A DNA stretch of 64,000 nucleotides from Paraspadella gotoi (taxonomy: Eukaryota > Animalia > Chaetognatha), in the NCBI GenBank assembly GCA_051294375.1, contig CM119269.1:12366981-12430980 (forward strand), in the 5' to 3' direction. Positions 13,642 to 56,182 of the stretch are shown piece after piece. Position numbers and translations under genes: made by a program. How positions within the stretch are numbered: the first letter of the stretch is position 1; each line of letters begins with the position of its first letter. Below the pieces are notes generated by a model. The model did not search any database. It was not told the origin of the DNA and saw nothing but the letters and a program-made list of their open reading frames with translations.

Positions 13642-16031
13642 GGGGGGACATAATCATGAATATCATAAAAGATTGTGTATTATACTGTAAATTATATGCT
13701 TCTTTCCTAACAAATTAATTTGTGGTAAAATATCCGAGCATCAATTACAAAGCAAAAAAAAAGCAACAGGAAATAAAAAACAGGGTTAAAAATAAAACAA
13801 TAAAAAAAAGAACAAACAATTCTCATGGAAAGAAAAAGACTCCCACTGTTTGTTCCCGATGGAGGCAGCCACTTTTTATGGGTAATTTTAAATATCGTCT
13901 TCAGAAGAAAAGAAAGAAGAAAGAAAAAAGAAAGAAGGAGTTAGGTGCATAAAGAAAAGAGAAAGAGAAAGAAAGAAAGAAAGAAAAAAGAAAGAAAGAA
14001 AGAAAGACAGACAGCAAGATAGAAAGACAATATGAAAGAAATAAGAAGAACGAAGCAGAAGATAACAAAAGAAAGTTTTTTTTTGTTTTTTTTTTTTTGG
14101 CCTTACAGAGATTGCGCTATCGTTTAGAAAAAGCTCCCGTTTCTGATAGAAGCTAAAAAAGCCTGACAAAGGCTCATGGGGGACACCCGCTCAAAGGCTC
14201 ACAATGAATCTTTGGAAAAAGCGATGCTGAAATGAAACGACCTTCAGCTCAGATTTTTTTACGTTTCTTTACAAGTACATATTGCCCGGTTATTAAATTC
14301 TATGAATGTATATTAATTCAAGACTGGTAAAATAATTTCGAACAACAAAGAAATCTGTACGACCGATATAAAATGAAAAGTAATTAAACCAGCTATCTTG
14401 GCTCCTTACTTTGGCTAAAGCTCAGGATAAGGAAAAACTCAACTATGATAGTCTTAATTAAACGCTTGATATTTTCTTGTAAGAGGGATAGAGGCCCGAA
14501 ACTACTAGGGTTAAAATAGCTTATTCATTAGATATATTGGTTGTACAAATAATTACTCGGATTAGTGATCCCTTAAAACGAACATTAACCAAGCATTACT
14601 GGCACTCTTTTCCAAAACTGCCACACGGAAAGAACAAATTATCGCCTATTGATTTGTTAATATTAAAACTTAAGATCGAACTATAATCTGACTTTAATCA
14701 TTTCATAAATGAATTTAACGTACAGTCCCGAATACTTGCATTGACCCCAATGGGGCTCAAACCCAAGGCCGTTTGGCGGGAAAAAGAATTTTCGCTCTTA
14801 TTCCACCGGGGTTACGATATTCGATCCAAGTGGGTGGTGATAGTGAATGTGTTTCCACGAGATTCCCATTTTTGTTCCTTAATCCATGAAATTAATTTCA
14901 ACCTTGATATTTCACTGTAATCTATTACTAAACCCTTAAACTAATCACTAATCCTAATCCATAACCGTAATCCCTAAACCTAACCTTATCATGATCGCGA
15001 ACTCTAAACAGTAATCTTTATTCTCTGACCTACACACTTAACCCTAAAACGTAATCCCTGACTCTAATCACTAACCTACTTTCTTGCTCTCACGCTTAAC
15101 CTAGCCCCTAACTTAATATTTAACCACTAATCTCAAACCTAATCATTAAACTTAAAAAAACTATTATGGTGGACTAAAATCCACCAACCGTTCATCAGCG
15201 GCCATTGGTGCCGGAGGCAAGTCATTCGCCTCCCAACCCAAAGGTCCGGGGTTCTAGCCCGGTGGTCGTCTGGCAGTTAAGAGGGACGGGGCGCTTAACC
15301 CGCCTGTAACTCGGTGTTACAGCCTGATCCGAAGCTCAGGGACTTCTTATATTGAACGGTTCTGTCATTAACACATAATAATAATTACTGTCTCTTCACT
15401 ATTTCAGTTTTAAATTTGAAATGAAACGGGGCGTTTTGGAAATTTATGGCTAAACTGTACGTACATACTGGCATTTGTGATCCCGCTCCTAAAACGAACC
15501 TTACCCCAATCCAAACTTACCCGCGGTGTCCAATGGCAACGTCGAGGACGCCGTCTCGTAGTTGATGCTCTGTTTGCTCTTGCGGGCGAAGCGGCCGCCG
15601 ACGGCGAACATAACGGCGGCGATCCAGGCGAAGATACAGGCCAGCCAGGCGAAGGCGTAGGACCAGGAGTAGCAGTAGTCCAGATATTTAGATCTGGAGG
15701 GAGTGGGGATAGAGAGAGAGAAGAGAGAGAGAGAGAGATGTTGGGGGGGAGGGGAATGTAATCTCGGTCTTGCTACCTTAGGCTTCGCAATCGATCTTCT
15801 CTCTCTGTCTATCGGGTTCTATCTTTCTTTCTGTGTCTCTTTCTCTCTTTTTTTCTTTCTTTCTTTTTCTGTCTCTTTATTTTTTCCTTCTTCTTTATTT
15901 ATTTCTTTTGTCACTCTATCCTCATTTGTTTTATTCTTTCTTTCTTTCTTTCTTTATTTTCCTCTCCTCTCCATTAGACGTACTCGATATTGTCCACGGT
16001 GTCCATGGTCAAGTGTAATCACTTCTATTTC

Positions 16032-16084
<53 letters not shown>

Positions 16085-16220
16085 TCGTTTCCCGTCATTC
16101 CTTTAAGAAAGATCTTCTTTGGTTGTCCCTTGAAGACTCCATTTTTGGTGAAGACGTCGGAAGAGCTCGTCAGGATGTTCTGCTCCAAGTAAATCGTTCT
16201 GCGAAGAGAGAGCGAGAGAG

Positions 16221-16268
<48 letters not shown>

Positions 16269-18003
16269 AAAGAGAGAGAATGTTATAATCGAGATTCGAG
16301 AAGATGACACTTTAATGATTTTTTTTTTTAAATTGTTCTTATTAATTTAATTTGTTACTGTGGCAGCAAGACTTAAAGCTGCCTCACTGCTGTCCGTCCT
16401 CAGCCTCGTCTCAATGGCTGAGCAGGCTAAATCATCTCATTCCATCCGTGCGTCCCGGGTTCAATCCCTGGGCATCCCGGTTCTGGCTTAAATGTGACGG
16501 TGCCGGTATAAACATGCCAGTGACAGGAGGCGGTCACTGAGGGTCCACAGCCCCTACGCCAGTTTGTGAGATACCCCGCGCCCTGGGTATCACAGGCTAT
16601 CCTCCCGTTGCCATAAGTGGTGAGCCCTACTCTCGAACACGCAACCGCTGCGCACCATGGCCCATGCTTACGTTGCTTTAGGTATGCATATCACGCCTAT
16701 GCCCTACTTCTCTGGTAACGCTTCCAGACTCGCTCGCGACCAGCCGCTCGCTCTCACTATGGCATGGATCAAAAACCTTCTCTCAGACATACCTCAGGAT
16801 TGAGGCCCCTGTGGAGAAGTCTGGTGGGGGGATCCTGTGGCAGCAAGACTTAAAGCTGCCTCACTGCTGTCCGTCCTCAGCCTCGTCTCAATGGCTGAGC
16901 AGGCTAAATCATCTCATTCCATCCGTGCGTCCGGTTCAATCCCTGGGATCCGGTTCTGGCTAAATGTGACGGTGCCGGTATAAACATGCCAGTGACAGGA
17001 GGCTCACTGAGGGTCCGCGCCCCTACGCCAGTTTGTGAGATACCCCGCCCTGGGTATCACAGGCTATCCTCCCGTTGCCCATAGTCTTCCCTTACGTCAC
17101 AACTTATTTTTTATCTTGTTTTTATTAATGTTTTTTATTATTAAATAATCAACATCGTATTAACACAAACAATAACGCGTAACGGTATCAACAACGCTTA
17201 AAAAACTGGAAGGGTAACGGTATAAATAATAGCGAAAAAGTCTGTAACACAGTAAAATAAAAACTACACTGATAAGATGTAATATTTCTTTTGATATTTT
17301 TAATGTTATGAACTAATTCATAAAAAACTTAAATATAACGTTCAAGAATCAGATGTTAATATCATAAAAACCAGAAACAGTAAAAAACGATAAACGTCAA
17401 GTATAAAAACGTTCAAAATAATACGCAAAAACAAAAATTTCAAAAACATGAAATTTTATAAATATTATGAAATGTTTAACCTTAAAATAAAACGTTCTTA
17501 AAACGTGAAAGATATTAAAGTCAAAACAGCGCTTAATTATGTAAAAAATCTAAAAAATTTAAAAAATCTTAAATTTTGATAATTTTAACTGTAATTTTAA
17601 TTTTAACTGTAATATTTTAACAACGCATAAAACATAATTATAGATAGCAAGCTACAATAAAAAAAAATTCATCACGCAAAATCAATTAAAGACGCTGTTT
17701 TTTTAATTTTTTTAATAAATAATTCATGTACTATATATATATAATGATCGCTTGAATAAAGAATAATTTTAATTTAAATAAAATTCGTACCGTAAAATTA
17801 ACCATAAACAAAAAAAATATAAACAAGTTAAAAACCCGAATTTTCGTTGCTATAGTCGAAAAACCTTGACAGTTCTAGGCCGCCATTTTGGAAATGGAGA
17901 ACAATATCGAGAAGTTGTTCGTGTATGCAAATAGTTTGCTTGAGTAACATATCGCAGCGGCGGTACGTATTGGAAGATGGGGGAACTAATTGAGAGAGAG
18001 AGA

Positions 18004-18076
<73 letters not shown>

Positions 18077-19379
18077 GAAATGTGAAATTTGGTAAAAACA
18101 TTAAATCGGCTTGGGAAGAAAAGGAAAAGAGATAAGAAACCCAAAAGTCGCCGAAAATTCGTTTAAAAAAAGAACGATAATTATTTTCTCAACAATTTAA
18201 TTAACAGTTTTTATCTTTTTGAAAAGGCGCTTACAATGCTGATCCGTAGCTTTATCTTGGGATTAAAACCGTGGTTAAGGGCTCGATCGACCACAAAGGC
18301 GGCTTAGAACTAGATGGTACTTGTTATATTATAAATGACGAAAACTTTTCATCTACAGAAAAAAAAAAAGTGAAGAATTTTTGACGCTGAAGTCATCATA
18401 ATTTTTTATAACGTTTTATATTTTTGGTTTAACTTTTTATGGGGAATCTAAATCTTTATTAAAATAATACCATTAATTATTTAACTAATTATTTAACTTA
18501 TATAAATTATTTACAATTTACAATTTATTTCAAAACCTTAATAAATTTCTATAAAATTAATAATGCTGTGATGCCAGGGCTTTGGTATGTTTAAGATAAA
18601 TATTCAAAATATACCTTTAAAATATAAGATAAGCAACAATGAAGTATCACCATTTAGTGATGGCTCGCCTATACCTGGATATTGGGATTAAAGAGCCGAA
18701 ATCCATGAAGGGTATAGGTTCCCAACTGATGACCCTCCCATTGTATAAACATAAATGATAAAAATTATTCAAAAAAGAAATAATTAAAAAGTAGTATAAA
18801 GAAAAAATAAAATTGTCATTAAAGTATTTTAAAATTATATTCATGACATAAAGGTGCCCCTATAGACCTTTCCCCAGTATGTATCCCTATCAGAACATAC
18901 AATTCTACATGGTAGTCTTATCCCTATTGGTAAAAAAATCATATATAACGTTGGTCCCCCCTCAAAAAATTATCCATTCCCACCCCTTTCTGTTCAGCCT
19001 CTTAGATATTATGATTTTTCATTAATGATTTTCTAACAGAAATGATGTGTGATATCTATTAGAAAACTAGTCTAGATAGTAATCTAGCCTTGTGTTGTAT
19101 AGATGCTCCCTCTATTTCCAGAAGACATCACTGACTTCCCCTTCCCAAATTGAATTATTAGATAAATAAAATATTTTTAAAAAAGAAAGCAATATATATT
19201 TGATTAAATAATATAGATTAAATAGTAAATCCTTCATAAAAATATTAAAATAGAAAAATATAAAATAGTGAAACAAGTAATTTGCAAATTTTCATATACT
19301 CGATAATTTTACTACCTCGCATAAAATTATTATTTTTAATTGACTCAATTCAATTTTTTGTTCTTCTTACCCATGTGAC

Positions 19380-19440
<61 letters not shown>

Positions 19441-19782
19441 TTCTTTAGCACAAAAATGTAGACTAAATTTCAAACCTGTTAACGCTGATGAAGGCTCGAA
19501 ATTAAGAGCCGAAACATGTACGTTTATGAAAGAAATAAACCAAACGTTGTTGAAACAAATTTTTCAAACTTTTTATATTTTTGGTCTAACTTTTTATGGG
19601 GAATCTAAATCTTTAATAAAGACTTCATATACTCGATAATTTTACTATCTCGCATAAAATTTTTATTTTTAATTGACTCAATTCTAAGCTACAGTCTTCT
19701 TACCCATGAAAGAAGGCGATGGCTGCAGCGACGAAGAAAGCGCAAAAACAAAGGAGGATCGTGTTGAATCGATGGAGTGTGG

Positions 19783-19842
<60 letters not shown>

Positions 19843-22484
19843 GAGAGAGAAACATATTCATTTTTTAAATACTTAATAAAATAAATAAAGAAGGAAATAT
19901 TAAACGAGGAAAAGGTGTTACAAAAATATGTTTTTATTAAATTAATATTTAAACATTTTTATACTAATTATCAGTAGCGAAGTAGTAGATTCACATAGTA
20001 GCATCTTATAAGACGTATGTTTATGATCTAACTGCCAAAATAGAGTGGTGTGAAAATAATAAATTTTTAGAAAATTAAAATTTATTTTTTAATTTTATAC
20101 ATACAGTGAGCTATATTTATATATAATAATAAGTATATAAGAAGCTAAAATTTAAAAATGCACTTGATGGCAGCCGTGTGTCCCACCTTTCCGAGGTGGG
20201 ATTAGACCTCCATTTGATGTCTTTTTTGGCTAGCCTCCGACAAAAAAACCAACAAAGCTACAATTTCATAAGTTTTTCGAGCTGTTTTTTGCTAAATATA
20301 GTTTTTTGTAATAATAACATAATTTTTAAAAAAGATTTATATTTTCTTTTATCAACTTTTAACGAGGAATCTGAATCTGTTTTCAGAATTTAAAAAAACA
20401 CTATTTTAAAATTTTGATATTATATAAGGGTAGTATTATATACAAAATAAACTGACTGGGCTACAATATTTATAAAAAAAAATAACTAGAGATTAGAATT
20501 CATTAATATAATAGTTTTTAAGATATAATTGCTAAGTTTTGATTCCAAACTTTCACTTCACCCTACTAAGGAGTTATCCCTGTTTTTTTTACTTTTGAAA
20601 CACTGTAGCACAAAAGGAGATAATGACAAAAAGCGGAACAGCTGGTCACCATTAATTTATTAAGTTTAAATATTTTTCAAGCTATCGATAATAAATAAAT
20701 ATTTTTATTTAATTTCTTGAACGTTTTCTGTTTAAACGGAGAGTAGAAAAATTTGTGCGTCTCGAAAGAATTAACATGTGCAAACCAAGATAATTAATTT
20801 CATAATTAATAAATAAATTGACAATAAATAAATAAATAAATTGAAAATACTCTCGACTTTTCGAGCACCATACTTTTCTTTAAGACAGACCTACTATCGT
20901 AAATTCTGAAAAAACAGGTTTCAAGGAAAATTAGTTGCATAGGTTTTATTTATGGTAGGTCTTTCAGAAATTAGCAAATCGCATGTAAATTGTAACACTG
21001 ATTAAAATAATAAAACGTTACCTGGATCCGTGAACCGCATAAAATCCTAAAATGACGGAGAGGAAGAGAGAGAAGATGGCAAATGCCATCAACCCGAATG
21101 TGGCGCGCATCAGGTGGAACCGGTGCCATTCCTGAGACGAAGAGGAAAACAAATCTGGAATCATCAGCCTCTTTTTTTTCTCTCAAAGTCAATTTGTGTT
21201 TTTTTGCGAGGGAAAAAAAAGAATTCGAAGTCAAAATGGAATCGAGGCCATATTTACTTAAAGCGGCCCATTTAAGTTTATATTCCAAATAAAGTTAATT
21301 TTTAGAATTAAAGATATTGCCGGAAGACAACGATAATACCACTCTCCTTATTATAATTATTATATATTATTATTATATATCATTATATTAAATTAAACTA
21401 ATAATTGAAGTATTTTGCTTTCTTTTCGTTGCGTTTTGATTGAGAGAAAACAAAGTTTGTAATTTTTAATAGAGAAACTATTTTTTAAAAATATAACAAC
21501 GGACATGTTTCGGCTGTTATTTTTCGAGCCTTCTTCACGGTTTGAAAGTAAGTGGCATCAGCAACAATATCACCAAGAGCAACAGCATCAGTAACAGCAT
21601 CAGCAAGACCAATAGCATCAGCATCAGAAACAGTGTCAGCATCAGCATCAGCAGCATCAGCAGGAACAGCATTTGCCGCCAGAATCTCTCCTTTCTCACT
21701 TTGTTCCGGAAGTTGACGTTGTGATCTGGCGGAATCTGCAAGTCGATGTAGAAGCAACGAGTCGAGATTCCTGAAGCAAATCTTTCGAATTGATTGACGA
21801 GATCGAGAGGATCGACGCCGGCTCCGCTATTAGGGATGACATAGACGATTAAGGGAAGGACTCATTGTTGACGTCGTTCTTGTTGTCTGTCGTGCGAGGA
21901 TTTAACGCTATATTTTATTTCATTTCTAAGCCGTCCTCACGCAAGTTACCGCAGGGTAAGTACCGTTGAGGATTGATCCCGGTACCTAATGGTCATGAGG
22001 TCTGATTTTCAGGTATATTTAAAAATTTCAATTTAACTGCGAAATGTAATGTTTAATTCCCAGAGCTAATTTTTCTTACGAGGCGACAAAGTCATGGGAC
22101 CCTAGGTCCTATTACCAGATGTTAACAGCGAACTATATTTCGTCATTGATATTATTTGGCTTGTTGTGTTTTTTTTTAGGGACTCACGTGAACTCGTCAC
22201 ACATGCATTCACGCAAGAGGCCGAAGTGATGAGGGTGATGCTCGTGTCGAATCGACTCGTTGACTGCAGGGGCGCCTGAATCAAAAAAAAAAAAAAAACT
22301 AGAGTGAGACAGAGACAGAGCGAGAGAGAGACAGAGATAGTGTCCGCCCGTCCGTTTTTTTCTCACCGGTCGTTCTCCAAACGTCCATCCAGTGATCAGT
22401 ACCGAGAGCGATGATGCTGCAGATGAGCGCCAAAATCGCGAAGAAGAGGCCGAGGCCAATGAACAAACTCATTTTACGCTGCAT
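13110..22484 (-). CDS. Claudin/PMP22-superfamily four-TM protein, ~412 aa, 11 exons: 22484-22367, 22275-22188, 22132-22080, 21985-21941, 21907-21700, 21131-21022, 19784-19704, 16198-16085, 15693-15521, 13580-13525, 13298-13110
   Basis: TM1 MSLFIGLGLFFAILALICSIIALGTDHW, loop motif HFGLLREC...C, TM2 RATFGLMAFAIFSLFLSVILGFY, TM3 ILLCFCAFFVAAAIAFFHG, TM4 YCYSWSYAFAWLACIFAWIAAVMFAVG. All introns are GT-AG. Exons 1-2 and 6-11 are phase-consistent as written; exons 3-5 need bases present in the duplicate copy. AATAAA on the minus strand at ~12817-12822. Confidence 0.88.
14930..15150. repeat. Degenerate (CCCTAA)-like hexamer array
   Basis: Recurring AACCCT/AATCCT/AACCTA variants; highly eroded. Confidence 0.5.
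15198..15385 (+). mobile_element. tRNA-derived SINE-like element carrying a twister ribozyme fold
   Basis: tRNA-like head 15198-15269 (acceptor stem GCGGCCA/TGGTCGT, A-box-like TGGTGCCGGAGG, B-box-like GGTTCTAGCCC), twister at 15275-15344, (ATA)n tail. No TSD recognised and only one copy in the window. Confidence 0.7.
15275..15344 (+). ncRNA. Twister ribozyme, type-P5 permutation (predicted cleavage U15296^A15297)
   Basis: P5 AGTT/GACT; P2' G(A)GG with P2 CCC; GA 15285-15286; T1 CGG with CCG; UAA; T2 GC/GC; P3 CTGTAAC/GTTACAG; P4 CCTGA/TCAGG closing loop TCCGAAGC. Confidence 0.85.
16483..16562 (+). ncRNA. Twister ribozyme (type P5) in 5' LTR (predicted cleavage U16509^A16510)
   Basis: P5 CTGGC/GCCAG; P2' ATGT with P2 ACAT; GA; T1' CGG; UAA; GC; P3 CAGTGAC/GTCACTG; P4 AGGG/CCCT; loop TCCACAGC (one T1 mismatch in this copy; C in place of the first A of AAGC). 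Confidence 0.75.
16956..17031 (+). ncRNA. Twister ribozyme (type P5) in 3' LTR (predicted cleavage U16981^A16982)
   Basis: Same fold; T1 CCG/CGG is intact, but several single-base deletions affect P3 and the P4 loop (possible assembly errors). Confidence 0.65.
18461..19290. mobile_element. ~0.8-kb dispersed repeat (other copies ~28645-29431 and ~60549-61222; inverted fragment split at ~43500-43569 / 45644-45670)
   Basis: Near-identical sequence at three places (e.g. GATGGCTCGCCTATACCTGGATATTGGGATTAAAGAGCCGAAATCCATGAAG); class not determined. Confidence 0.8.
19480..19525 (+). ncRNA. Minimal type I hammerhead ribozyme (Penelope-type), cleavage after GUA at 19520
   Basis: AACG-CTGATGA-A-GGCTC(gaaattaa)GAGCC-GAA-ACATGT-A-CGTT: intact core, stems I and II, palindromic stem III; AATAAA follows. 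Confidence 0.88.
21497..21543 (-). ncRNA. Degenerate type I hammerhead of the same family
   Basis: Minus strand AAACCG-TGAAGA-A-GGCT(cgaaaaataac)AGCC-GAA-ACATGT-C-CGTT; the C of CUGANGA and stem I are disrupted. Confidence 0.6.
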
Positions 22485-22957
22485 CGCTGCTCCGTTCGGC
22501 CTCTTGCTGCCGCTGGTACTGCCGCTTTTGTTGTTGTTTTCGTTTGACTTTTATTTACACTTGGAGTCGGAGATTAAAGAGTTGTGCTGTTTGTTTGTTT
22601 GTTTGTTTGTTAAAGAGTTGTGTTGTTTGTTTGTTTATTTGTTAAAGAATTGTTCTGTTTGTTTGTTTTTTTCACCGAATCGTTTCTTTACTGTGAATTG
22701 TTTTCTGTTCCTGTTTAGCGCGACTTTAAAGAAATAGAATGAAATATATACTGTAGTTGTTGTTGTCGATTCAATTTGTAAAAATTTTAAAAAAATAATC
22801 TTAAAAGCATAAGGATCGAGCCGCATTCGATAGTAACCAAANNNNNNNNNNGGCTCGATAACAATTTATAATTTGTCAAGAAAAAAAAATAGAAAAAAGT
22901 AAAGGGGAAGAAATGCGGTAGAATGAACGAATTGATACGTAATATAATATAATATGA

Positions 22958-23212
22958 TATGGCAACAGCCGGGTTGCCTGTGATGCCTATTGGGGTGGGG
23001 CATCTCACTGTTGGCTTTGGGGGCTTCCGACCCTCAGTGACGCCTCCAGTCACTGGCGCGGTTACGCTAGGACGGTCTCGCTTTGCCAACGCAGAGGGAA
23101 GTCGTGAGGACTGTGGATGGAACACTACGCTTGGGATGGTGTGTTCCCCTTCTGAGCCAATGGATTTGGCTGAAGGATGGTGGACGTGAGGCGGTGTGAA
23201 TATACCGCCACA
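22958..23212 (-). mobile_element. Solo LTR related to the 16359-17083 element, with 4-bp TSD ATGA
   Basis: Minus strand TGTGGCGG...GTTGCCATA, 255 bp; ATGA at 22954-22957 and 23213-23216; shares CCAGTGAC..GTCACTGAGGGTC and GTGAGAT.CCCC...ATCACAGGC blocks. Confidence 0.88.
23010..23090 (-). ncRNA. Twister ribozyme (type P5) in solo LTR (predicted cleavage between 23064 and 23063)
   Basis: P5 GTTGGC/GCCAAC; P2' GCG with CGC; GA; T1' CCG pairing with CGG in loop TCGGAAGC; UAA; GC; P3 CAGTGAC/GTCACTG; P4 GGG/CCC. Confidence 0.82.
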
Positions 23213-23907
23213 ATGACTTTGTTTGCTCCAACCACCAGCAATGTCGGGATTTATTTTCCAGAAGATAATTTATAAGATAATATTTTCGAAGCCTACAAGG
23301 GCTGCGTCGACCGTCAGATGAACTATCTTGAAAATGTAGCAAGGGTTTATCAATCGTAAAGGGACAGTAAATGTCGAATAAATGACGATTATTTAATTTT
23401 GGCTAAAATAAAGCAGCTAAAATGGCCACTCGAATACTGACCCGACGCGGGCTCACAGAATATCTTTAATTAATATTTATAAGGATTATGATGACGACGA
23501 CGACTTCCGATGATAATTGATGATCATGATGCGATTCTATTAATGATAATGAAAACGACGAAGAGGTAAAGGACCTTTTTCACCGCAGAGGGCGTGGCTA
23601 CCGTGACACAGTTAATCGCGTCCCGTCACTCCGGTTTTGATCGACCGAGGAATCCGAAGGAAAACAATTAAAAGAAAAACCGGAAAAAAAAGAGAAAAAT
23701 GTTAAAGAATAAAGAGACTGTAGTCGGGCATATCATATCCACAAGACAAACTTATTACGAGTCTCGCGTCCAATTTTCTTTCTTTATTTCTTTTTATTAT
23801 TGTTGTTGTTGTTGTTGTTTTATTCATTTTTATGCTAATCCAAAGGAAAATGATTTCTCTTCGATATTGAGAAAAGGATTCGATGTGAATTAAATCCGAG
23901 CTGTGAT

Positions 23908-24175
23908 CAGTGACGTGTAGAAGAGACCTGGTGGAGACCCTTCACAATTTTTTTGGGAGGGAGGATATTTTAAAATACGATTAATTTTATAACTTATAAA
24001 AATATTTATATCCATATTTTTTGTATTTTTTTAATGTTTCAAACTCATATAAAAATATTTTGTGCGAAATTAATGTGTTTATTTTATCTTTTATTTCTTT
24101 ATATTTTTTCGGAATCTCCCCAAGAGCCAAGTCCTCTGTCAAATTTCTAGAATCTACCCCTCTACACGCCTCTGG
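23908..24175. mobile_element. Possible old hAT-type MITE (duplicate at ~33804-34065)
   Basis: Imperfect TIRs CAGTGACGTGTAGA / TCTACACGCCTCTG; TSD not intact. Confidence 0.4.
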
Positions 24176-25188
24176 CAGAAATGTCACAGCTTTGCTATGA
24201 ATTGATCCAAACTGATGTCACATTAAGGATCAACTTAAAATAATCGAAGATAAAATTGAAACATATAGAAAAAGAAAGTTTGCTGTTTTCCATCAATATT
24301 TTAAAGATTGAAAAAAACAAAAATTAATAATTAAGTATGACTTGTCTACTTGAAATGGAAGTATTTATCTTTGTTCGTTTCGTCGCGACAAAGAAGGACA
24401 CAACATAACTTCGTCTTTGTTTCCACGTTTCGCGTGGGTGATATCTCGAACATTTCTCATATACTTTCAGCCAATGAGAGATGTCTTTGACTTTAATATT
24501 GACCAATCAAGAGCAAGAATTTTTTGAAAGATAAAGAAATGACGGAAATTTTTCGAAATTTTTTAGCGCCAGTGATGATGGGAGTTATTTAGCCAAATAT
24601 AAATTTTATTAAATAATAAAATAACTACTTAAACTTCTTTTGTCCAGTCCTCCCACCATTGGATTCTTTTCAGGCTTACTCATATTTTTTTTAAATAATA
24701 TAAAATAAGAAATTCTTCTGTTAGGTTGGCGACCAATTTTGTCTTCAAAAATTTTAACCACGAGAAAATGACGAATCCAAATCTTTCTTCTCGAAACGCG
24801 AGTAAGACACTGGGACGGGCCCGCGAGTCAGCGAGCCAGCGAGTCAGCTCGATCTAGCGAGTTCGTGGGCGAATTCAAGATCAATGAATCGTTTTTGATT
24901 GAATTAGAAAAAGAGAAAATGGTTTTTTTTTTGTTAAAACTTAAATTCAAGGAATAACCACAGTGAGTACGACGACGACGACGACGACCACGACGACATC
25001 AAATTCATCTTGAGAAGAGATTCCATGTTTCGAATGAACGTCTGGATTTGCTTCGCCGTCGCAAGATCACTGCACAATGCAGAGTGCACATCTGTACGGA
25101 CCGGACTTACAGTTACAATACTGTTTTGGATTAGATATATTTTTGCCCCAAGGAAAAAAAAGACGACGACGAAGAAGAAGACGAAGGA

Positions 25189-25224
<36 letters not shown>

Positions 25225-26147: not shown

Positions 26148-26239
<92 letters not shown>

Positions 26240-26601
26240 AAAGAGAGAGAGAGGTGGGCGGGAGGACACTGGTTAAAAAAAAAAATTCAATTACTGTTTG
26301 AATTTATCAGTTGAAAAAATCACACATTGTTTCTTTTCTCCCGAATTTGAAGAAAATTGGATGGAAAAGAAAGAAAAAAAAAAGAAAAGAAAAAAGTCTC
26401 TTCCCTGGATTTCCTCCTTAAGCCCCTTTCCTTCTCTGTCTCTGTCTCTGTCTCAAAACGTTTCCCCTCCTCTCTCTCTCTCCCTTTTTTTGGTTCATCG
26501 ACAAGAGGGATGGTTAAGAGAATGAATGGGAGAAATGAACGAAGGAAGTGGGGAGAAAATGAGAGAAAACTCGCTTNNNNNNNNNNNNNNNNNNNNNNNN
26601 N

Positions 26602-28644
26602 ATGTCGTAAGTCTGTACATGGGAAAACTTTTCCATTTATAGGATAAATAGCTTTAGGATTTTATAGGACGTTGCCTGGATGTCTGGCTATTGCCCATTT
26701 AAGCAATTTTTCAAAAAAATAATCTTAAACCACTTAAAAATTGGGTCAAAATTTTTTAAAAAACTTGCATAGCTCTAATATATTTGAAATTTTTTTCTTA
26801 AAATTTTGCTAACTTGTACTTAAGAGGTTTGTAAACTTCTGTAGAAATATTGTTACTATCAAAAAATTTTTTGCCATATTTATCAGTGCTAATATTTTAG
26901 ATGGGTCATTTTTTCAATGATGCATAACTTCCTTATTTGTGAATATTATGGTTTTAAATTTTAGTAATAGGTGGGCCTTGGGTAGTCCTACAATACATAT
27001 AAATTTCAATCATTTTGAAAAACTTTTTGACACAGGTCAATTTTTTTTTACAAAATTCAATTGTCAATCCTGCTAAAAATATTATTGCAAATAATGTTAT
27101 TCTTTGCCTATAAATCAGTTAAAACATATTTAAAATAAGCCTAAAGCAAAACATTTTTCTCAACATTTTTAAAAACACATTTGCATATTGTTGCATTTTA
27201 TAATTTTTTACAATTTTTTCACATAAAACTAATCCATTTTTAAAATTTTTGGTACACAGATAATATATAATCAAACCTTTAAAAATATACCATCAAACCT
27301 AATTTTTAATTAATTTCAAATATTTTTAATGTATTTTATATATTACTAAAAATTATGATTTTAATAAACATTCTGCTAACTTTTTCAAAAGTGGGCATCA
27401 TTGAAAAGAGGGCAACTCAAGGATTCCAAATATATAATTTTTTTACCAATTTAATGTCCCAAAGCTGAGATAATTCTTTCCAAAGTGCTCAAAAAATTGA
27501 AAAAACACTACTTTTTAATCGTTAATAGAAAATGCGACTATGATAGTTTTGTTTCAATACTTGGTAACTAGGTCAAGAATTGTTCATATTTTGTGGTAAT
27601 GTCATGTCCAGGGAAGAAAATAAATATTATAGTAGTTTCCTCAATCGATTTTAAATTTGGCAGAACATTTTACTCTTTTTTACCAAGTTTTTAGAGAATG
27701 CTAAACGTTTCTCTGATTACGCAAAATAGAATTTGAGAAATAAAAAATTAATAGTACCAATAGTTGGTGTTATGTCTCAAATAGATGGAAAAAAAACCTT
27801 GTTTAAAAATTTGATCTGGAAAAGGGGTAACTTTGGCATACCAATGGCATCGTCAATGCCAATCGTTCTTTCAAATAATTTTTTTTTTTTTAATACATTG
27901 AAAGGGGAAAAGGAAATTCGAAATGCTGGTGGTATGAAAGTTATAGAAAATCTGGCCATAGTGACTTGATAATCATGACCTTTTATGTCTTGTGTAATGG
28001 GGGCAGTAAATAGACCCAAAAAATTCAATCATTAAGTCAGTCAATCAACCCTTTCAAATAGACTGTTCTGCGAAATTTTTTCTCTTCACTCAAAAATTTA
28101 TTTTCTTCACTAAAAAATTTCGCAGAACAACCTATTTGAAAGGGTTGATTGACTGACTTAATGATTAAATTTTTTGGGTTTATTTACTGCCCTCATTACG
28201 CTAGACATAAAAGGTCATGATTTTCAAGTCACTATGCCCAGATTTTTTATAACTTTCATGCCACCAGCATTTTGAATTTCCTTTTTTCCCCTTTCAAATG
28301 TATTAAAATAAAAAAAAATATTTGAAAGAACGATTGGCATGGACGATGCCATTGTTACGCCTAAGTTACTCCTATTCCAGATCAAATTTTTAAACAAGGT
28401 TTTTTTTCCATCTATTTGAGAACATAACACCAACTATTGGTACTATTAATTTTTTATTCTCAAATTCTATTTTGCATAATCAGAGAAAGGTTAAGCATAC
28501 TCTAAAAACTTTGGTAAAAATTGCTTAAATGGGCAATAGCCAGACATCCAGGCAATGTCCTAATAAAATCCTAAAGCTATTTATCCTGTAAATGGAAAAG
28601 TTTTCCCATGTACAGACTTACGACATTCTTGGTTTCCGGTACTG
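26602..28644. mobile_element. Non-autonomous Tc1-like element, left tip lost in the N-gap
   Basis: ~110-bp inverted repeats at 26602-26710 and ~28517-28626; right end ...GGTTTCCGGTACTG|TA (TA-CAGT terminus typical of Tc1); no transposase ORF. Confidence 0.8.
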
Positions 28645-29530
28645 TATAAATTATTTACAATTTACAAATTATTACAAAACATTAATAAATTTCTATAAAA
28701 TTAATAATGCTGTGATGCCAGGCTTTGGTATGTTTAAGATAAATATTCAAAATATACCTTTAAAATATAAGATAAGCAACAATGAAGTATCACCATTTAG
28801 TGATGGCTCGCCTATACCTGGATATTGGGATTAAAGAGCCGAAATCCATGAAGGGTATAGGTTCCAACTGATGACCCTCCCATTGTATAAACATAAATGA
28901 TAAAAATTATTCAAAAAAGAAATAATTAAAAAGTAGTATAAAGAAAAAATAAAATTGTCATTAAAGTATTTTAAAAATTATATTCATGACATAAAGGTGC
29001 CCCTATAGACCTTTCCCCAGTATGTATCCCTATCAGAACATACAATTCTACATGGTAGTCTTATCCCTATTGGTAAAAAAATCATTATAACGTTGGTCCC
29101 CCCTCAAAAAATAATCAATTCCCACCCCTTTCTGTTCAGCCTCTTAGATATTATGATTTTTCATTAATGACTTTCTAACAGAAATGATGTGTGATATCTA
29201 TTAGAAACTAGTCTAGATAGTAATCTAACCTTGTGTTGTATAGATGCTCCCTCTATTTCCAGAAGACAACACTGACTTCCCCTTCCCAAATTGAATTATT
29301 AGATAAATAAAATATTTTTAAAAAAGAAAGCAATATATATTTGATTAAATAATAAAGATTAAATACTAAATCCTTCATAAAAATATTAAAATAGAAAAAT
29401 ATAAAATAGTGAAACAAGTAATTTGCAAATTTTCATATACTCGATAATTTTACTACCTCGCATAAAATTATTATTTTTAATTGACTCAATTCAATTTTTT
29501 GTTCTTCTTACTCGTGTGACATGTCTCTCT

Positions 29531-29603
<73 letters not shown>

Positions 29604-29642
29604 TTCTTTAGCACAAAAATGTAGACTAAATTTCAAACCTGT

Positions 29643-29688
29643 TAACGCTGATGAAGGCTCGAAATTAAGAGCCGAAACATGTACGTTA
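29643..29688 (+). ncRNA. Minimal type I hammerhead (duplicate of 19480-19525)
   Basis: TAACG-CTGATGA-A-GGCTC..GAGCC-GAA-ACATGT-A-CGTTA. Confidence 0.85.
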
Positions 29689-29864
29689 TGAAAGAAATAA
29701 ACCAATCGTTGTTGAAACAAATTTTTCAAACTTTTTATATTTTTGGTCTAACTTTTTATGGGGAATCTAAATCTTTAATAAAGACTTCATATACTCGATA
29801 ATTTTACTATCTCGCATAAAATTTTTATTTTAATTGACTCAATTCTAAGCTACAGTCTTCTTAC

Positions 29865-29944
29865 CCATGAAAGAAGGCGATGGCTGCAGCGACGAAGAAA
29901 GCCGCAAAAACAAAGGAGGATCGTGTTGAATCGATGGAGTGTGG

Positions 29945-30031
<87 letters not shown>

Positions 30032-32648
30032 ATCATATTCATTTTTTAAATACTTAATAAAATAAATAAAGAAGGAAATATTAAACGAGGAAAAGGTGTT
30101 ACAAAAATATGTTTTTATTAAATTAAATATTTAAACATTTTTATACTAATTATCAGTTAGCGAAGTAGTAGATTCACATAGTAGCATCTTATAAGGAGTA
30201 TGTTTATGATCTAACTGCCAAAATAGAGTGGTGTGAAAATAATAAATTTTTAGAAAATTAAAATTTATTTTTTAATTTTATACATACAGTGAGCTATATT
30301 ATATATAATAATAAGTATATAAGAAGCTAAAATTTAAAAATGCACTTGATGGCAGCCGTGTGTCCCACCTTTCCGAGGTGGGATTAGACCTCCATTTGAT
30401 GTCTTTTTTGGCTAGCCTCCGACAAAAAAACTAACAAAGCTACAATTTCATAAGTTTTTCGAGCTGTTTTTTGCTAAATATAGTTTTTTTGTAATAATAA
30501 CATAATTTTTAAAAAAGATTTATAATTTCTTTTATCAACTTTTAACGAGGAATTTAAAAAAACACTATTTTAAAATTTTGATATTATATAAGGGTAGTAT
30601 TATATACAAAATAAACTGACTGGGCTACAATATTTATAAAAAAAAAATAACTAGAGATTAGAATACATTAATATAATAGTTTTTAAAATATAATTGCTAA
30701 GTTTTGATTCCAAACTTTCACTTCACCCTACTAAAGGAGTTATCCCTGTTTTTTTTACTTTTGAAACACTGTAGCACAAAAGGAGACAATGACAAAAAGC
30801 GGAACAGCTGGTCACCATTAATTTATTAAGTTTAAATATTTTTCAAGCTATCGATAATAAATAAATATTTTTATTTAATTTCTTGAACGTTTTCTGTTTA
30901 AACGGAGAGTAGAAAAATTTGTGCGTCTCGAAAGAATTAACATGTGCAAACCAAAGATAATTAATTTCATAATTAATAAATAAATTGACAATAAATAAAT
31001 AAACAAATTGAAAATACTCTCGACTTTTCGAGCACCATACTTTTCTTTAAGACAGACCTACTATCGTAAATTCTGAAAAAAAACAGGTTTCAAGGAAAAT
31101 TAGTTGCATTGGTTTTATTTATGGTAGGTCTTTCAGAAATTAGCAAATCGCATGTAAATTGTAACACTGATTAAAATAATAAAACGTTACCTGGATCCGT
31201 GAAACCGCGTAAAATCCTAAAATGACGGAGAGGAAGAGAGAGAAGATGGCAAATGCCATCAAACCGAATGTGGCGCGCATCAGGTGGAACCGGTGCCATT
31301 CCTGAGACGAAGAGGAAAACAAATCTGGAATCATCAGCCTCTTTTTTTTTTCTCTCAAAGTCAATTTGTGTTTTTTTCGAGGGAAAAAAAAGAATTCGAA
31401 GTCAAAATGGAATCGAGGCCATATTTACTTAAAGCGGCCCATTTTATTTTATATTCCAAATAAAGTTAATTTTTAGAATTAAAGATATTGCCGGAAAGAC
31501 AACGATAACACCACTCTCCTTATTATAATTATTATATATTATATATCATTATATTAAATTAAACTAATAATTGAAGTATTTTGCTTTCTTTTCGTTGCGT
31601 TTTGATGAGAGAAAACAAAGTTTGTAATTTTTAATAGAGAAACTATTTTTTAAAAATATAACAACGGACATGTTTCGGCTGTTATTTTTCGAACCTTCTT
31701 TCACGGTTGAAAGTAAATGGCATCAGCAAACAACATCACCAAGAGCAACAGCATCAGTAACAGCATCAGCAAGACTAATAGCATCAGCATCAGAAACAGT
31801 GTCAGCATCAGCATCAGCAGCATCAGCAGGAACAGCATTTGCCGCCAGAATCTCTCCTTTCTCACTTTGTTCCGGAAGTTGACGTTGTGATCTGGCGAAT
31901 CTGCAAGTCGATGTAGAAGCAACGAGTCGAGATTCCTGAAGCGAATCTTTCGAATTGATTGACGAGATCGAGAGGATCGACGCCGCTCCGCTATTAGGGA
32001 TGACATAGACGATTAAGGGAAGGACTCCATTGTTGACGTCGTTGTTGTTGTCTGTCGTGCGAGGATTTAGCGCTATATTTTATTTCATTTCTAAGCCGTC
32101 CTCACGCAAGTTACCGCCAGGGTAAAGTACCGTTGAGGATTGATCCCGGTACCTAATGGTCATGAGGTCTGATTTTCAGGTATATTTAAAAAATTTCGAA
32201 ATGTAATGTTTAATTCCCAGAGCTAATTTTTCTTACGAGGCGACAAAGTCATTGGGACCCTAGGTCCTTATTACCAGATGTTAACAGCGAACTATATTTC
32301 GTCATTGATATTATTTGGCTTGTTGTGTTTTTTTTTAGGGACTCACCGTGAACTCGTCACACATGCATTCACGCAAGAGGCCGAAGTGATGAGGGTGATG
32401 CTCGTGTCGAATCGACTCGTGACTGCAGGGGCGCCTGAATCAAAAAAAAAAAAAAAAAAACTAGAGTGAGACAGAGGACAGAGCGAGAGAGAGACAGAGA
32501 TAGTGTCCGCCCGTCCGTTTTTTTTCTCACCGGTCGTTCTCCAAACGTCCATCCAGTGATCAGTACCGAGAGCGATGATGCTGCAGATGAGCGCCAAAAT
32601 CGCGAAGAACAGGCCGAGGCCAATGAACAAACTCATTTTACGCTGCAT
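29865..32648 (-). pseudogene. Second copy of claudin-like exons 1-7, frameshifted as assembled (likely haplotype duplicate)
   Basis: Same exon sequences with different 1-bp indels; exons 8-11 are not duplicated. Confidence 0.6.
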
Positions 32649-35076
32649 CGCTGCTCCGTTCGGCCTCTTGCTTGCCGCTGGTACTGCCGCTTTTGTTGTT
32701 GTTTTCGTTTGACTTTTATTTACACTTTGGAGTCGGAGATTAAAGAGTTGTGCTGTTTGTTTGTTTGTTTGTTAAAGAGTTTTTGCTGTTTGTTTGTTTA
32801 TTTGTTTAAAGAATTGTTCTGTTTGTTTGTTTTTTTCACCGAATCGTTTCTTTACTGTGAATTGTTTTCTGTTCCTGTTTAGCGCGACTTTAAAGAAATA
32901 GAAATGAAATATATTACTGTAGTTGTTGTTGTCGATTCAATTTGTAAAAATTAAAAAAAAAACAATTTATAATTTGTCAAGAAAAAAAAATAGAAAAATG
33001 AAAGGGGAAGAAATGCGTGTGAACGAATGAACGACATATATTGCAATCACGGGTTCCGTGATGTATGGCATCTACTGGGCTTTCGTTCCGACCATCCATC
33101 ACTGGCCTACGCTAGACGTTTGTTGCTCCAACTACCAAGCAATGTCGGGATTTATTTTCCAGAAGATAATTTTATAAGATAATATTTCGAAGCCTACAAG
33201 GGCTGCGTCGACCGTCAGATGAACTATCTTGAAAATGTAGCAAGGGTTTATCAATCGTAAAGGGACAGTAAAATGTCGAATAAATGACGATTATTTAATT
33301 TTGGCTAAAATAAAGCAGCAAAATGGCCACTCAATACTGACCCGACGCGGCTCACAGAATATCTTTAATTAATATTTATAAGGATTATGATGACGACGAC
33401 GACTTCCGATGATAATTGATGATCATGATGGATTTATTAATGATAATGAAAACGACAAGAGGTAAAGGACCTTTTTTCACCCCAGAGGGCGTGGCTACCG
33501 TGACACAGTTAATCGCGTCCCGTCACTCCGGTTTTGATCGACCGAGGAATCCGAAGAAAACAATTAAAAGAAAAACCGGAAAAAAAAAGAGAAAAAATGT
33601 TAAAGAATAAAGAGACTGTAGTCGGCATATCATATCCACAAGACAAACTTATTACGAGTCTCGCGTCCAATTTTCTTTCTTTATTTCTTTTATTATTGTT
33701 GTTGTTGTTGTTGTTTTATTCATTTTTATGCTAATCCAAAGAAAATGATTTCTCTTCGATATTGAGAAAAGGATTCGATGTGAATTAAATCGAGCTGTGT
33801 GATCAGGTGACGTGTAGAAGAGACCTGGTGGAGACCCTTCACAATTTTTTGGGAGGGAGGAATTTTAAACTACGATTAATTTTATAACTTATAAAAATAT
33901 TTATATCCATATTTTTTGTATTTTTTTAATGTTTCAACTTCATATAAAAATATTTTGTGCGAAATTAATGTGTTTATTTTATCTTTATTTCTTTATATTT
34001 TTTCGGAACTCCCCAAGAGCCAAGTCCTCTGTCAATTTCTAGAATCTACCCTCTACACGCCTCTGGCAGAAATGTCACAGCTTTGCTATGAATTGATCCT
34101 AACTGATGTCACATTAAGGATCAACTTAAAATAATCGAAGATATAAATTGAAACATATAGAAAAAAAGTTTTGCTGTTTTCCTCAATATTTTAAAGATTG
34201 AAAAAAACAAAAATTAATAATTAAGTATGACTTGTCTACTTGAAATGGAAGTATTTATCTTTGTTCGTTTCGTCGCGACAAAGAAGGACACAACATAACT
34301 TCGTCTTTGTTTCCACGTTTCGCGTGGGTGATTCTCGAAATTTCTCTATACTTTCAGCCAATGAGAGATGTCTTTGACTTTAATATTGACCAATCAAGAG
34401 CAAGAATTTTTTTGAAAGATAAAGAAATGACGGAAATTTTTCGAATTTTTTAGCGCCAGTGATGAGGGAGTTATTTTAGCCAAATAAAAATTTTATTAAA
34501 TAATAAAATAACTACTTAAACTTCTTTTGTCCAGTCCTCCACCATTGGATTCTTTTCAGGCTTACTCATATTTTTTTAAATAATATAAAATAAGAAATCT
34601 CTTCTGTTAGGTTGGCGACCAATTTTGTCTTCAAAATTTTAACCACGAGAAAATGACGAATCCAAAATCTTTCTTCTCGAAACGCGAGTAAGACACTGGG
34701 ACGGGCCGCGAGTCGCGAGCAGCGAGCCAGCGAGTCAGCCGATCTAGCGAGTTCGTGGCGAATTCAAGATCAATGAATCGTTTTTGATTGAATTAGAAAA
34801 AGAGAAAATGGTTTTTTTTTTTTGTTAAAACTTAAATTCAAGGAATAACCACAGTGAGTACGACGACGACGACGACGACCACGACGACATCAAATTCATC
34901 TTGAGAAGAGATTCCATGTTTCGAATGAACGTCTGGATTGCTTCGCCGTCGCAAGATCACTGCACAATGCAGAGTGCACATCTGTCGGACCGGACTTACA
35001 GTTACAATACTGTTTTGGATTGATATATTTTTGCCCCAAGGAAAAAAAAGACGACGACGAAGAAGAAGACGAAGGA

Positions 35077-35112
<36 letters not shown>

Positions 35113-36934
35113 AAAACCGGTTTAAAGGGTATTGTCTCTTCGATTCGCTCCCGATCGGCTAAAATTTACTGAATTGAAAACCGGTGGATTTTAGAGACGA
35201 ATCTGTCGAAACTTTTACGTGAGGCGACTTACATTAAAAAAATAATATTCAAACTTGATTTACGATCATGCTGATGGTAAACTATACTTAAAAAGAATAA
35301 GAATTAAAATTATTTGATGTTTCATGAACAAAATTAAATTCGTACTTAACAACTGTCAAGCAGGGGGAAAACTTAAATAATTTAATGTACATTTCTAACA
35401 GTCTTTATGCAGTGGGTCATAAGATCCGTCAACTTAGGAGTTCTTATTGGAAACATCTGAATTTTCACTTATAAGGGAACATACTCTGTGAATAAAAGAC
35501 GTGAGTCTGTTAAAAGCTTCAGCGCATTTTATCGTGAGAGCAACACAAACCTGTCTCGAATAGCTATTTAAAATGTAATTTTATTGGTTGATTTATAAAA
35601 TACCTTATTTATGCTAGCGGAGACATTCCGATTAATATAAGAGTGGTTTAAATAATTTGAAATTTACTCATTATAGGAAGAACTGATGAATACAAGACTG
35701 TGATGATAAAGTTCAGGATATGTATTACTAGATAGGAGCTTAAACCAAAAGCGTCATCGGGCAAGATACTTATAATAGATAATTATATTTTGTACCAATT
35801 TATATTATATATATTATCATTATCTCTCGTCGGCTGTTATCTTTGATCGGAAACCAAGATTCATTTGAATTCCCGCGCCATACCTGACTCGCACCCCCAC
35901 CCATGTCTCTATCGCTCAAGCCGTGGTGCGATTTCCGCTAAAATGATCAACGAACATACAATAAACCAGGCTAAAGTTTCATCCTCGCCCTGTTCCTTCT
36001 TCATTCACATGCGCGAGGGGGGCCTCGCAGTTTGCCCTTTCATGTTTCCATCTCCTGAATATTAGCTTTGAAAAAAAAAATGTATTTGGTTATTATGTGT
36101 TTTAAACTTTTAATATAAATTTTCTTTAACGTACATAGGAGAAATAAATAAATAGAAATATAATCATCATTGACAATATAATTATAATAGTATCAATTGT
36201 ACAAATTTCATAGTATATTATATTATATCATAATATATATATATATATAACTATATTACAAAGCGGGAGTGCGGCTTTAAAAAACGGCGAGTTGGTTTTT
36301 TAGGCGCCTCCATTACTAAGGAGGAGAAATAGAAATCTAAAAAAAGCAGAAAGGAAAAAAGCGAAAAATAGAATTATAAGTAATAATAAAACATAAAAAA
36401 ACTCTACAAGCATGCATTAGGAATTGTCTTACGCCGGTGTGTACGACAGAGGCTATTTACGTTATAACTAACGCAGAACGTGCGGAGATAGAGAGACAGA
36501 GAGGAGAGAGAGAGAGGAGAGAGAGAGAGAAGAGAGAGAGCGAGAGAGAGAGAGAGAAGAGAGAAGAGAGAGATGAGAGAGAGAGAAGAGAGAAAAAGAG
36601 AGAGAGAGTGGGCGGAGAACTGGTTAAAAAAAAAAATTCAATTACTGTTGAATTTATCAGTTGAAAAAATCACACATTGTTCTTTTCTCCCGAATTTGAA
36701 GAAAATTGGATGGAAAAAGAAAGAAAAAAAAAAGGAAAAGAAAAAAGTCTCTTCCCTGGATTCCCCTTAAGCCCCTTTCCTTTCTCTGTCTTCTGTCTCT
36801 GTTCTCAAAACGTTTTCCCCTCCTCTTCTTCTCCCTTTTTTTGGGTTTCATCGACAAGAGGGATGGTTAGAGAATGAATGGTGAGAAAATGAACGAAAGG
36901 AAGTGGGGAGAAAATGAGAGAAAACTCGCTTTAT

Positions 36935-37018
<84 letters not shown>

Positions 37019-37153
37019 CGTATTTTTTTGCGCCGTTTGCAATTTTCCCTCTTTTCCTTTTTCCTTTTCTTACAATCCCTGTCACAGAAGGAAAAGAGAT
37101 AGTGAAAAAAAAGTTTTCCTCTTGCGGTGAAGGCCGCGGGGAGGGAGAGAGAG

Positions 37154-37238
<85 letters not shown>

Positions 37239-38663
37239 CCGCCGTCTTCTTGTCGAGGAACCCGCCAAGGACCTCGCGAGACGAAGATTTCTCAGGTCAG
37301 GATGCTGTTTATTGAGAAACCCTTTTAAAACTACTCGCTAACAGTCAATACCCTATATTTTTAAGGCAGGACATTTGATATATATATATATATTTATATA
37401 TGGTTGTGCCTATTTTATATATAACAGAATCTATCATTCTCTAAACTTTCTTTTTCTCTCTGATGCAACGAGGCGACAGTCGATGCTTCAAAGTTCAGCA
37501 TTGAATTTCAATGCTGCCCTGTCCTTTGAGTCACTTTTTAGTTGCGCCTCGAGTACTCGCTGAGCAACTCTTTCAGTCGGTCTATCCCACTTACGTTAAA
37601 ACTATCTGGCATATAGTTGGTTGCTCATTTGTCAAGACAGAAAAAAACCTCAAACTAAGTGACTACCAGCGCCGCCTTTAGGAAATCCTAAAACATTAAA
37701 GAATAAAAGACGAAATTCCAATGCAGTGCGTGTCATAAATACAAATACAATATAAAGACGTTTGTTATACATAAATTTCCGAGTTATGTAGTCATGTGAT
37801 CACAGGAAAAGAAAAGAAAGAAAAGAAAAGAAAAAAAAAAGAAAGAAAAAGATAAGAAAGTCAACGCGACGCATCAAATTGGATGGACCGATCTTGTTTG
37901 ACTAATTTTTTTCTCTAATAACTAATCTAATCAATTTTATAAAAAATACGATTATTTAAAAAAAATTCTAATTTTCTTTTTTAAAAAACACATTCATAAG
38001 GTTTTTACTCTCGCACTCCTCGTAAGACGTAAACAAAAAAGAGAGCAAATGATACAAAACAAAAAGACATTTTTTCTTTGACTTCGTCGATGGTGACGTC
38101 ACGACTTTGATTCTCAAAACATTTTTTTTTATTATTCGTCGTCGTCGTCGCTTCCTTGTCTAAATTCTTGTACAAAGTTCTAAACAAATGTTTTAAAAAA
38201 ATAACATTAAGCCATGTGATACACGTGATAACCAAGAAGACGATTTTGGGTTAAAGAAACAATTTTTTTAAAGTGAGGATCAAGAAAACTTTATTATCCG
38301 TCCTTTGCCCCTAACCCCCCCCCCCAAAAGTCACTTCTCCGTCCATCAGCCCCTCCAAGGCCGGGCGACGACCTCTTAGAGAGGCCCTATGTGTCTGGAT
38401 TTAGGACAGAATTTACAAAGGCAGCCTTTTGGACGAGGTGAGTTCTTGATCTTCTCAATGTCGTTGGGATCCGGAGTTTCTGCAAAAGGAATTGCGAGTT
38501 ATTGCAGATTTGCTCATGGAGGAGCGAGTGACCCTATTGCAGAATGCAGAATGGCCACTCACTAAAGGATTTGAAATCTAAATGTATTGTCTGAAGTCTG
38601 AAATCTTAATCAGGATTACAATATTAGCTTACGTTGAAAGAAATCAGGGACCTGCTATGTAAT

Positions 38664-38726
38664 TATCTTGTAAGAGTGATGGAGGCCTTAAACCACCAAA
38701 GCCTGTCCAAAGTCAGGGGCAAGATA
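38664..38726 (+). ncRNA. Twister ribozyme (type P5) of a third repeat family (predicted cleavage U38689^A38690)
   Basis: P5 TATCTTG/CAAGATA; P2' G(A)GT with ACC; GA; T1 TGG/CCA; UAA; T2 AC/GT; CAAAG linker; P4 CCTG/CAGG closing TCCAAAGT. Confidence 0.85.

Positions 38727-41019: not shown

Positions 41020-56182
<15,163 letters not shown>

Follow-up and report, generated by a model that had tools for sequence, protein, structure and literature searches.

Twister-like ribozyme folds in the window

We analyzed a 64-kb stretch of the genome of the chaetognath Paraspadella gotoi (contig CM119269.1, positions 12,366,981 to 12,430,980; hereafter the window, to which all coordinates refer). Type-P5 twister-like folds are present there in at least three kinds of retroelement: a tRNA-headed element (element A), an element with two long terminal repeats (LTR1 and LTR2) together with a solo LTR of a related family, and a family represented by fold D near 38.7 kb and a damaged copy near 42.4 kb. 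In the five copies named in an earlier reading made from the letters alone (A, LTR1, LTR2, solo LTR and D), the place of helix P1 is taken by a segment of 6-8 nt that is palindromic in whole or at its core. The features are as follows.

15198..15270, plus strand: tRNA-like head of element A, with paired ends, a T-arm and a B-box-like motif at 15250 (from folding and a box scan)
15272..15347, plus strand: twister-like fold A, type-P5 order; predicted cut U15296/A15297
15290..15295, plus strand: P1 palindrome of A, GGCGCT (core GCGC, outer G.U)
16359..16615, plus strand: LTR1 (TG...TA), with a tRNA-like A box (16415) and B box (16458) preceding the twister
16483..16562, plus strand: twister-like fold in LTR1; predicted cut U16509/A16510; A.C mismatch in T1
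16501..16508, plus strand: P1 palindrome of LTR1, TGCCGGTA (core CCGG)
16616..16835, plus strand: non-coding internal region
16836..17083, plus strand: LTR2, 95.7% identical to LTR1 over 255 columns
16956..17031, plus strand: twister-like fold in LTR2; predicted cut U16981/A16982; L4 one base short in the assembly
16973-16980, plus strand: P1 palindrome of LTR2, TGCCGGTA
22958..23212, minus strand: solo LTR from a related family, flanked by a 4-bp duplication of the target (TCAT)
23010..23090, minus strand: twister-like fold of the solo LTR; T1 CGG/CCG; predicted cut U23064
23072-23065, minus strand: solo-LTR segment TCCTAGCG (core CTAG, one C.C mismatch)
38664..38726, plus strand: twister-like fold D; T1 CCA/UGG, T2 AC/GU; predicted cut U38689
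38683-38688, plus strand: P1 palindrome of D, AGGCCT (core GGCC)
42435..42494, plus strand: damaged second D copy, with a 3-nt deletion at the catalytic G/T1' strand and a T2 mismatch
42451-42456, plus strand: segment of this sixth copy, CGATCT, with core GATC in place of GGCC

The two-LTR element contains no stop-free frame of at least 120 aa within 16359-17083. A TGG resembling a primer-binding site starts 2 nt past LTR1 and a purine-rich stretch resembling a polypurine tract lies ahead of LTR2; both are candidate motifs. Loose contig ends at 16358/16359 and 16615/16616 mark the edges of LTR1, and the sequences flanking the element differ (TTAC and GTCT). In run X1, 1,852 contigs align to the element, and many different flanks end at LTR edges, which points to a much-repeated family, although the summed depth of this run does not equal copy number. 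Two other organisms (B and C) also contribute a few contigs that align to the element. The solo LTR is identical to LTR1 at 171 of 264 columns. The consensus of the loose ends at LTR edges is ATAT or GTAC (16354-16358, 23216-23213 and the flanks in run X1), hinting that LTR insertion might prefer short palindromic target sites.

Both LTR families and element A carry a tRNA-like head ahead of the twister, and element A aligns with the LTR across head and twister. The head of A is SINE-like (resembling a short interspersed nuclear element) and likely contains an RNA polymerase III (Pol III) promoter; ARAGORN called no tRNA at this head. A cassette of tRNA-like head and twister is common to the SINE-like element (15198-15347) and the LTR (16400-16562), which suggests that the LTR may have captured a Pol III unit. 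In both LTR families the twister is followed by a conserved hairpin (GTGAGATRCC ... GGYATCAC; 16565-16598 and, on the minus strand, 23007-22979) with a compensatory change between them. An LTR-family fragment at 48775-48840 runs from L4 to this next hairpin at 85% identity and is without the P1 part. Just upstream of twister D, short broken frames (38340-38600) could be the end of a retroelement open reading frame (ORF); they gave no Pfam match and two repeat-driven, uninformative protein matches.

Assignment to the type-P5 twisters

In the Rfam scans, the 38.7 kb copy alone was matched, to Twister-P5 with 25.8 bits against a gathering score of 37.6, and the other four named copies were not reported. 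We then used a covariance model built solely from type-P5 twisters (11 phage sequences and one metagenome sequence), run over both strands of the window without filters; its E-values are rough and three of its alignments are partial. Six matches were obtained at E ≤ 5, every one at these motifs: 38671 (E = 0.003), 15278 (0.038), 16489 (0.07), 16961 (0.095), 23064 (0.31) and, for the damaged copy, 42442 (0.53). Single scores in the window, of 10-19 bits, are weak when taken alone because 15 of 71 pattern-selected prokaryote loci score 15-31 bits on the same model. The strength of the assignment rests on the six best sites being these motifs and on helices that are absent from the model. A loose structural descriptor gave two matches in the window, against 44 in a set of 60 shuffled windows; taken alone it therefore carries no weight, and it was used as a filter only.

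Across the four families (A, LTR, solo LTR and D), 92 of 96 pairs in P2, P3, P4, P5, T1 and T2 are canonical, under a hand assignment that favors pairing. The UAA cut site, with both conserved A residues, is found in all five named copies, as is the catalytic G followed by A before T1', which is disrupted in the sixth copy. T1, the 3-bp pairing of L4 with T1', reads CCG/CGG in A and LTR2, CGG/CCG in the solo LTR and CCA/UGG in D, and is mismatched in LTR1; T2, of 2 bp, is GC/GC in A, LTR1 and the solo LTR and AC/GU in D, LTR2 being the copy with the shortened L4. Across the four families, both-sided changes occur in T1 as well as in T2. In A and D, P2 is bulged and 3 bp long, and P3 is a long hairpin in three families. 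These copies are predicted to form no intramolecular P1 hairpin: their segments are loopless palindromes of 6-8 nt, and the best monomer energy is reached without any P1 pair. For this reason we file them as a variant of the type-P5 twister and not as standard members.

Palindromic segments in the register of P1

All five named segments lie exactly where the sequence-only reading had placed them, and the register that it gave them is borne out twice. The Rfam Twister-P5 alignment of the 38.7 kb copy assigns AGG/CCU to P1 with a 0-nt loop. For an outside standard, viral contigs were scanned with a pattern that leaves P1 free between 4 and 34 nt; 46 of 66 viral loci passed the structural filter and, as in the window, P1 stands in these 46 directly after the 3-nt T1' and directly before UAA. 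The phage type-P5 alignment covaries strongly at P2, T1 and P4. The phage P1 segments measure 17-24 nt in 46 of 46 cases, and a palindromic centre was found in none of the nine distinct segments of even length (six of odd length are not countable). In T1, these 46 phage loci (among L122-L187) have CCG/CGG, CGT/ACG or CGC/GCG rather than CCC/GGG.

No short-P1 twister passing the descriptor was found in the phage, metagenome or prokaryote scans, whose collections are poor in animal genomes. A short-P1 pattern of the A and D type had no match in the viral contigs; in a further viral scan none of 121 loci passed, with about one third of the collection covered; one of 39 metagenome loci passed, its P1 being a 21-nt hairpin; and none of 71 prokaryote loci passed.

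The statement that all copies in the window are palindromic at P1 holds for the five named copies and, at its core only, for the sixth; it fails in family D for two much-decayed remnants with broken palindromes (AGACCT, 49266-49261, and AGGCCC, 14492-14497). Palindromy nevertheless exceeds chance when the letters are shuffled within each segment of the four families. Thirteen of 14 symmetric positions pair, and at least 13 pairs were reached by 331 of 200,000 shuffles; the centre is a Watson-Crick palindrome in all four families, which 29 of 200,000 shuffles matched. Palindromic 4-mers make up 6.4% of the 4-mers of the window.

The segments have five different palindromic cores in one register (GCGC, CCGG, CTAG, GGCC and GATC), and the central pairs show both-sided changes (GCGC/GGCC, GGCC/GATC and CCGG/CTAG). 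The central two pairs are impossible within one strand, whereas a monomer could fold into a hairpin by its outer pairs, so that the central pairs are the diagnostic ones. Since the families are related, the test lies in compensatory change and not in independence. The 42.4 kb copy differs from D at 5 of 83 positions outside the segment, which gives the change from GGCC to GATC a rough chance of 0.001-0.004.

Several observations weaken the case for a selected palindrome. The families share ancestry and are not four independent draws, the copy with GATC is dead and its segment lies beside a deletion, and a change from CG to TA can come from CpG decay. Within the LTR family, T>A at 16501, which would break the outer pair, accounts for 38,917 of 304,427 depth in run X1 (about 13%; 64 contigs), and its partner change is absent among the 40 of 52 variant rows listed for that run.

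Predicted folding of two copies

The sequence-only reading had proposed that two copies pair through their palindromes into a shared P1. Five cores in one register and the swapped fold obtained for LTR1 and LTR2 without constraints speak for pairing between copies, but a shared P1 is insufficient: P2, T1 and P5 would have to be swapped between the copies as well. Since the two ends of a duplexed segment lie at opposite ends of the helix, each active site would by topology need strands from two copies. This swapped arrangement is nested except for the pseudoknots and can therefore be computed; the folding model leaves out both pseudoknots, which we count as a point against the reading.

At minimum energy, palindrome 1 of the natural two-LTR transcript is paired with palindrome 2 (probability about 0.48) and P2 is swapped. 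Swapped P2 has a probability of 0.35-0.51 and own-copy P2 of 0.0, and one of 25 segment shuffles gave a value as high. Co-folded without constraints, LTR1 and LTR2 are predicted to form a double twister with P5, P2, a shared P1, P3 and P4 (-12.7 kcal/mol), in which the partners of T1 and T2 stay unpaired, while single copies misfold in prediction. The palindrome adds -8.6 kcal/mol in A, -11.4 in the LTR and -9.4 in D, where folding resembles that of the LTR; this gain was equaled by 21 (A), 6 (LTR) and 4 (D) of 300 segment shuffles. Even with shuffled segments, the swapped form is favored by 4-6 kcal/mol.

Other predictions fit two-copy pairing poorly. The swapped fold of A depends on the ends that are chosen and is lost when these are slightly longer, the palindrome of the solo LTR yields no energy gain (298 of 300 shuffles were as good), and the computed unit circle does not exceed shuffles in structure (z = -0.14).

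Taken together, we consider it probable, with moderate confidence and from modeling, that the palindrome is selected for two-copy pairing into a domain-swapped double ribozyme that would favor cleavage over the single copy. In such a structure, two palindromes would form one duplex of 6-8 bp serving as P1 for both active sites, and each site would combine strand P5/P2'/GA/T1' from one copy and strand UAA/P2/P3/P4/L4 from its partner. A transcript from the tRNA-like promoter in LTR1, presumably made by Pol III, would carry both copies; a run of four T is absent until 17107, so Pol III could read through both ribozymes, although such an absence is not rare by chance. Cuts at 16509 and 16981 would free one unit of about 475-477 nt that ends in a 5'-OH and a cyclic phosphate and that a host ligase, as in retrozymes, could circularize. 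Cutting would be slow in a solo LTR or a monomeric circle, each of which holds one copy.

That gating is strict, with cleavage in two-copy transcripts only, is a more doubtful proposition. We offer with similar reserve a broader possibility, that obligate double twisters are widespread and act as a copy counter in animal retroelements; a mobile tRNA-head-plus-twister cassette would then serve SINE-like and LTR elements alike, full two-LTR elements would release RNA circles of unit length, and solo LTRs in host genes, as well as the circles, would stay uncut.

Alternative explanations

One alternative is that monomers cleave well, the segment closing a hairpin of one or two pairs with a 4-nt loop, and that the palindrome was left behind when a symmetric deletion in an ancestral P1 hairpin brought its two basal arms together. 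The literature on P1 lends it weight and tells against a strict gate: in the accessible parts of these sources, a large test of natural twisters reports P1 imperfections without effect on cleavage (PMC11662667) and a review terms the twister P1 dispensable (PMC6154101), while cleavage of P1-less twisters is termed inefficient elsewhere (PMC8501958). These statements concern an imperfect or removed P1 and may or may not extend to one closed by a tether of 6-8 nt; for a monomer, one or two pairs closing a 4-nt loop might suffice. Put side by side, the three bases at either end of a phage P1 already make such a palindrome, which in L151 reads as the segment of A, and the variable outer pair of the LTR also fits this explanation. 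One ancestral deletion followed by drift, however, would not yield five palindromic cores, nor does it readily explain GGCC becoming GATC within one family whose copies are otherwise so similar; the monomers, moreover, misfold in prediction. We regard this explanation as unlikely.

The folds might instead be twister-derived and without useful cleavage in any state, with a different function, for instance in RNA stability or in recognition by a reverse transcriptase. Every copy in the window scores under the Rfam cut-off, the P2 strand of A and D has 3 nt and a bulge, and defects occur in LTR1, in LTR2, in the solo LTR and in the 42.4 kb copy. Yet four families retain, with compensatory changes, the catalytic G, the two A residues that follow the cut, T1 and T2, and T1 is intact in most of the depth of run X1, where G at 16547, the site of the LTR1 mismatch, accounts for 577,473 of 585,480 (99%). 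The C that the LTR family has at the A.A position is also reported as tolerated in the available portion of PMC11662667. A non-cleaving role appears improbable. Still less probable, in our view, is that the palindrome is a signal for RNA dimerization or packaging, a kissing loop independent of catalysis. LTR elements package two RNAs and retroviral dimer initiation sites work as kissing loops; the LTR segment is also computed to form a stable self-duplex. Against such a signal, the segment occupies precisely the position of P1, next to the scissile U on its 5' side, whether the family has LTRs or not, and a cut would part the palindrome from the downstream end of the unit. Selection for a two-copy, domain-swapped ribozyme remains the reading that we prefer.

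Other features of the window

The window is microsatellite-rich eukaryotic DNA without a notable long ORF. Two minus-strand frames, 22484-22371 and 15698-15543, show likeness to the claudin family (Pfam E = 0.015 and 0.002, respectively, below cut-offs), a likeness that points to an animal; they probably represent the coding exons at the two ends of such a gene, first and last respectively. Between them, in antisense orientation, lies the two-LTR element, and the solo LTR is just upstream in sense orientation. Long, near-identical duplicated blocks occur at about 18600-24400 and 28750-34350, about 10 kb apart, and partly again near 60550-61300. An inverted repeat at 27775-28421 resembles a miniature inverted-repeat transposable element, with arms of 174 and 137 nt that are >90% complementary. 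A fold resembling the hepatitis delta virus ribozyme was considered at 49511-49590, where GC-rich stem-loops follow a microsatellite, and was rejected, as it had no Rfam ribozyme match.

Comparison with known systems

The folds of the window share with the type-P5 twister (Rfam RF02684) the order of strands, the U/AA cut site, the GA before a 3-bp T1, the 2-bp T2, P2, P4 and L4, and phage examples have the same register. They differ from it in their loopless palindromic P1 of 6-8 nt, against a hairpin of 17-24 nt, in the long P3 hairpin of three families and in their setting in animal retroelements.

Twisters borne by retrotransposons, with a weak or missing P1, are described in the accessible parts of two reports, on the T-variant twisters of Perere-3 in Schistosoma (PMC8501958) and on truncated RTE twisters (PMC7761336). 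Unlike the copies described here, these have a P1 that is open at the 5' end of the element and takes its 5' strand from the target site; in the accessible text of PMC8501958, neither "palindrome" nor "dimer" occurs (0 occurrences each). According to PMC8557442, Naiad elements are without canonical hammerheads, and twisters go unmentioned in the available part of that paper. A Naiad-type Penelope-like element would have, ahead of its tail, an ORF with a GIY-YIG endonuclease at the N terminus and reverse transcriptase at the C terminus; the broken frames before twister D gave neither a Pfam match nor an informative protein match for such an ORF. Palindromic or dimeric twisters and twister-bearing LTR elements were not found in the full-text literature, a search whose coverage excludes most subscription journals.

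Another parallel comes from two sets of hammerheads, those of Penelope-like elements, whose stem III is palindromic, and those of amphibian retrozymes, which act as dimers according to the accessible parts of PMC6765202 and PMC7229834. In these dimeric minimal type I hammerheads, as here, a helix adjacent to the core is shrunk to a loopless palindrome, copies stand in tandem on a transcript and a double ribozyme is predicted. The ribozyme class is a different one, and here the advantage of the dimer is predicted from folding energies. As stem III is part of the hammerhead core and the twister P1 is reported as dispensable, gating may be weaker in twisters. If the two-copy reading is true, two unrelated ribozyme classes have arrived at the same palindrome trick in retroelements, the repeated ribozyme-bearing LTRs have a reason why they need not cut host transcripts, and the arrangement amounts to a compact two-input RNA switch.

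The two-LTR element as a whole resembles the LTR retrozymes of plants, as far as these are described in the accessible text of PMC4918200. Both have a ribozyme in each LTR, a short non-coding interior and solo LTRs. Candidate further likenesses are the motifs resembling a primer-binding site and a polypurine tract, a 4-bp target duplication (here at the solo LTR) and the unit-length RNA predicted between the cuts. Plant LTR retrozymes carry a type III hammerhead, whereas the element described here carries a twister, and Rfam scans of the window gave no hammerhead match; its host is an animal, its LTR of about 255 bp has a tRNA-like head and its unit measures about 475-477 nt. Published animal retrozymes, in the part of PMC7229834 available, are non-LTR and hammerhead-bearing. 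On the copy-counter reading, no LTR retrozyme of an animal, and none with a twister, would be known before this element; a natural dimeric twister would also bring LTR retrozymes from plants into animals, with another ribozyme.

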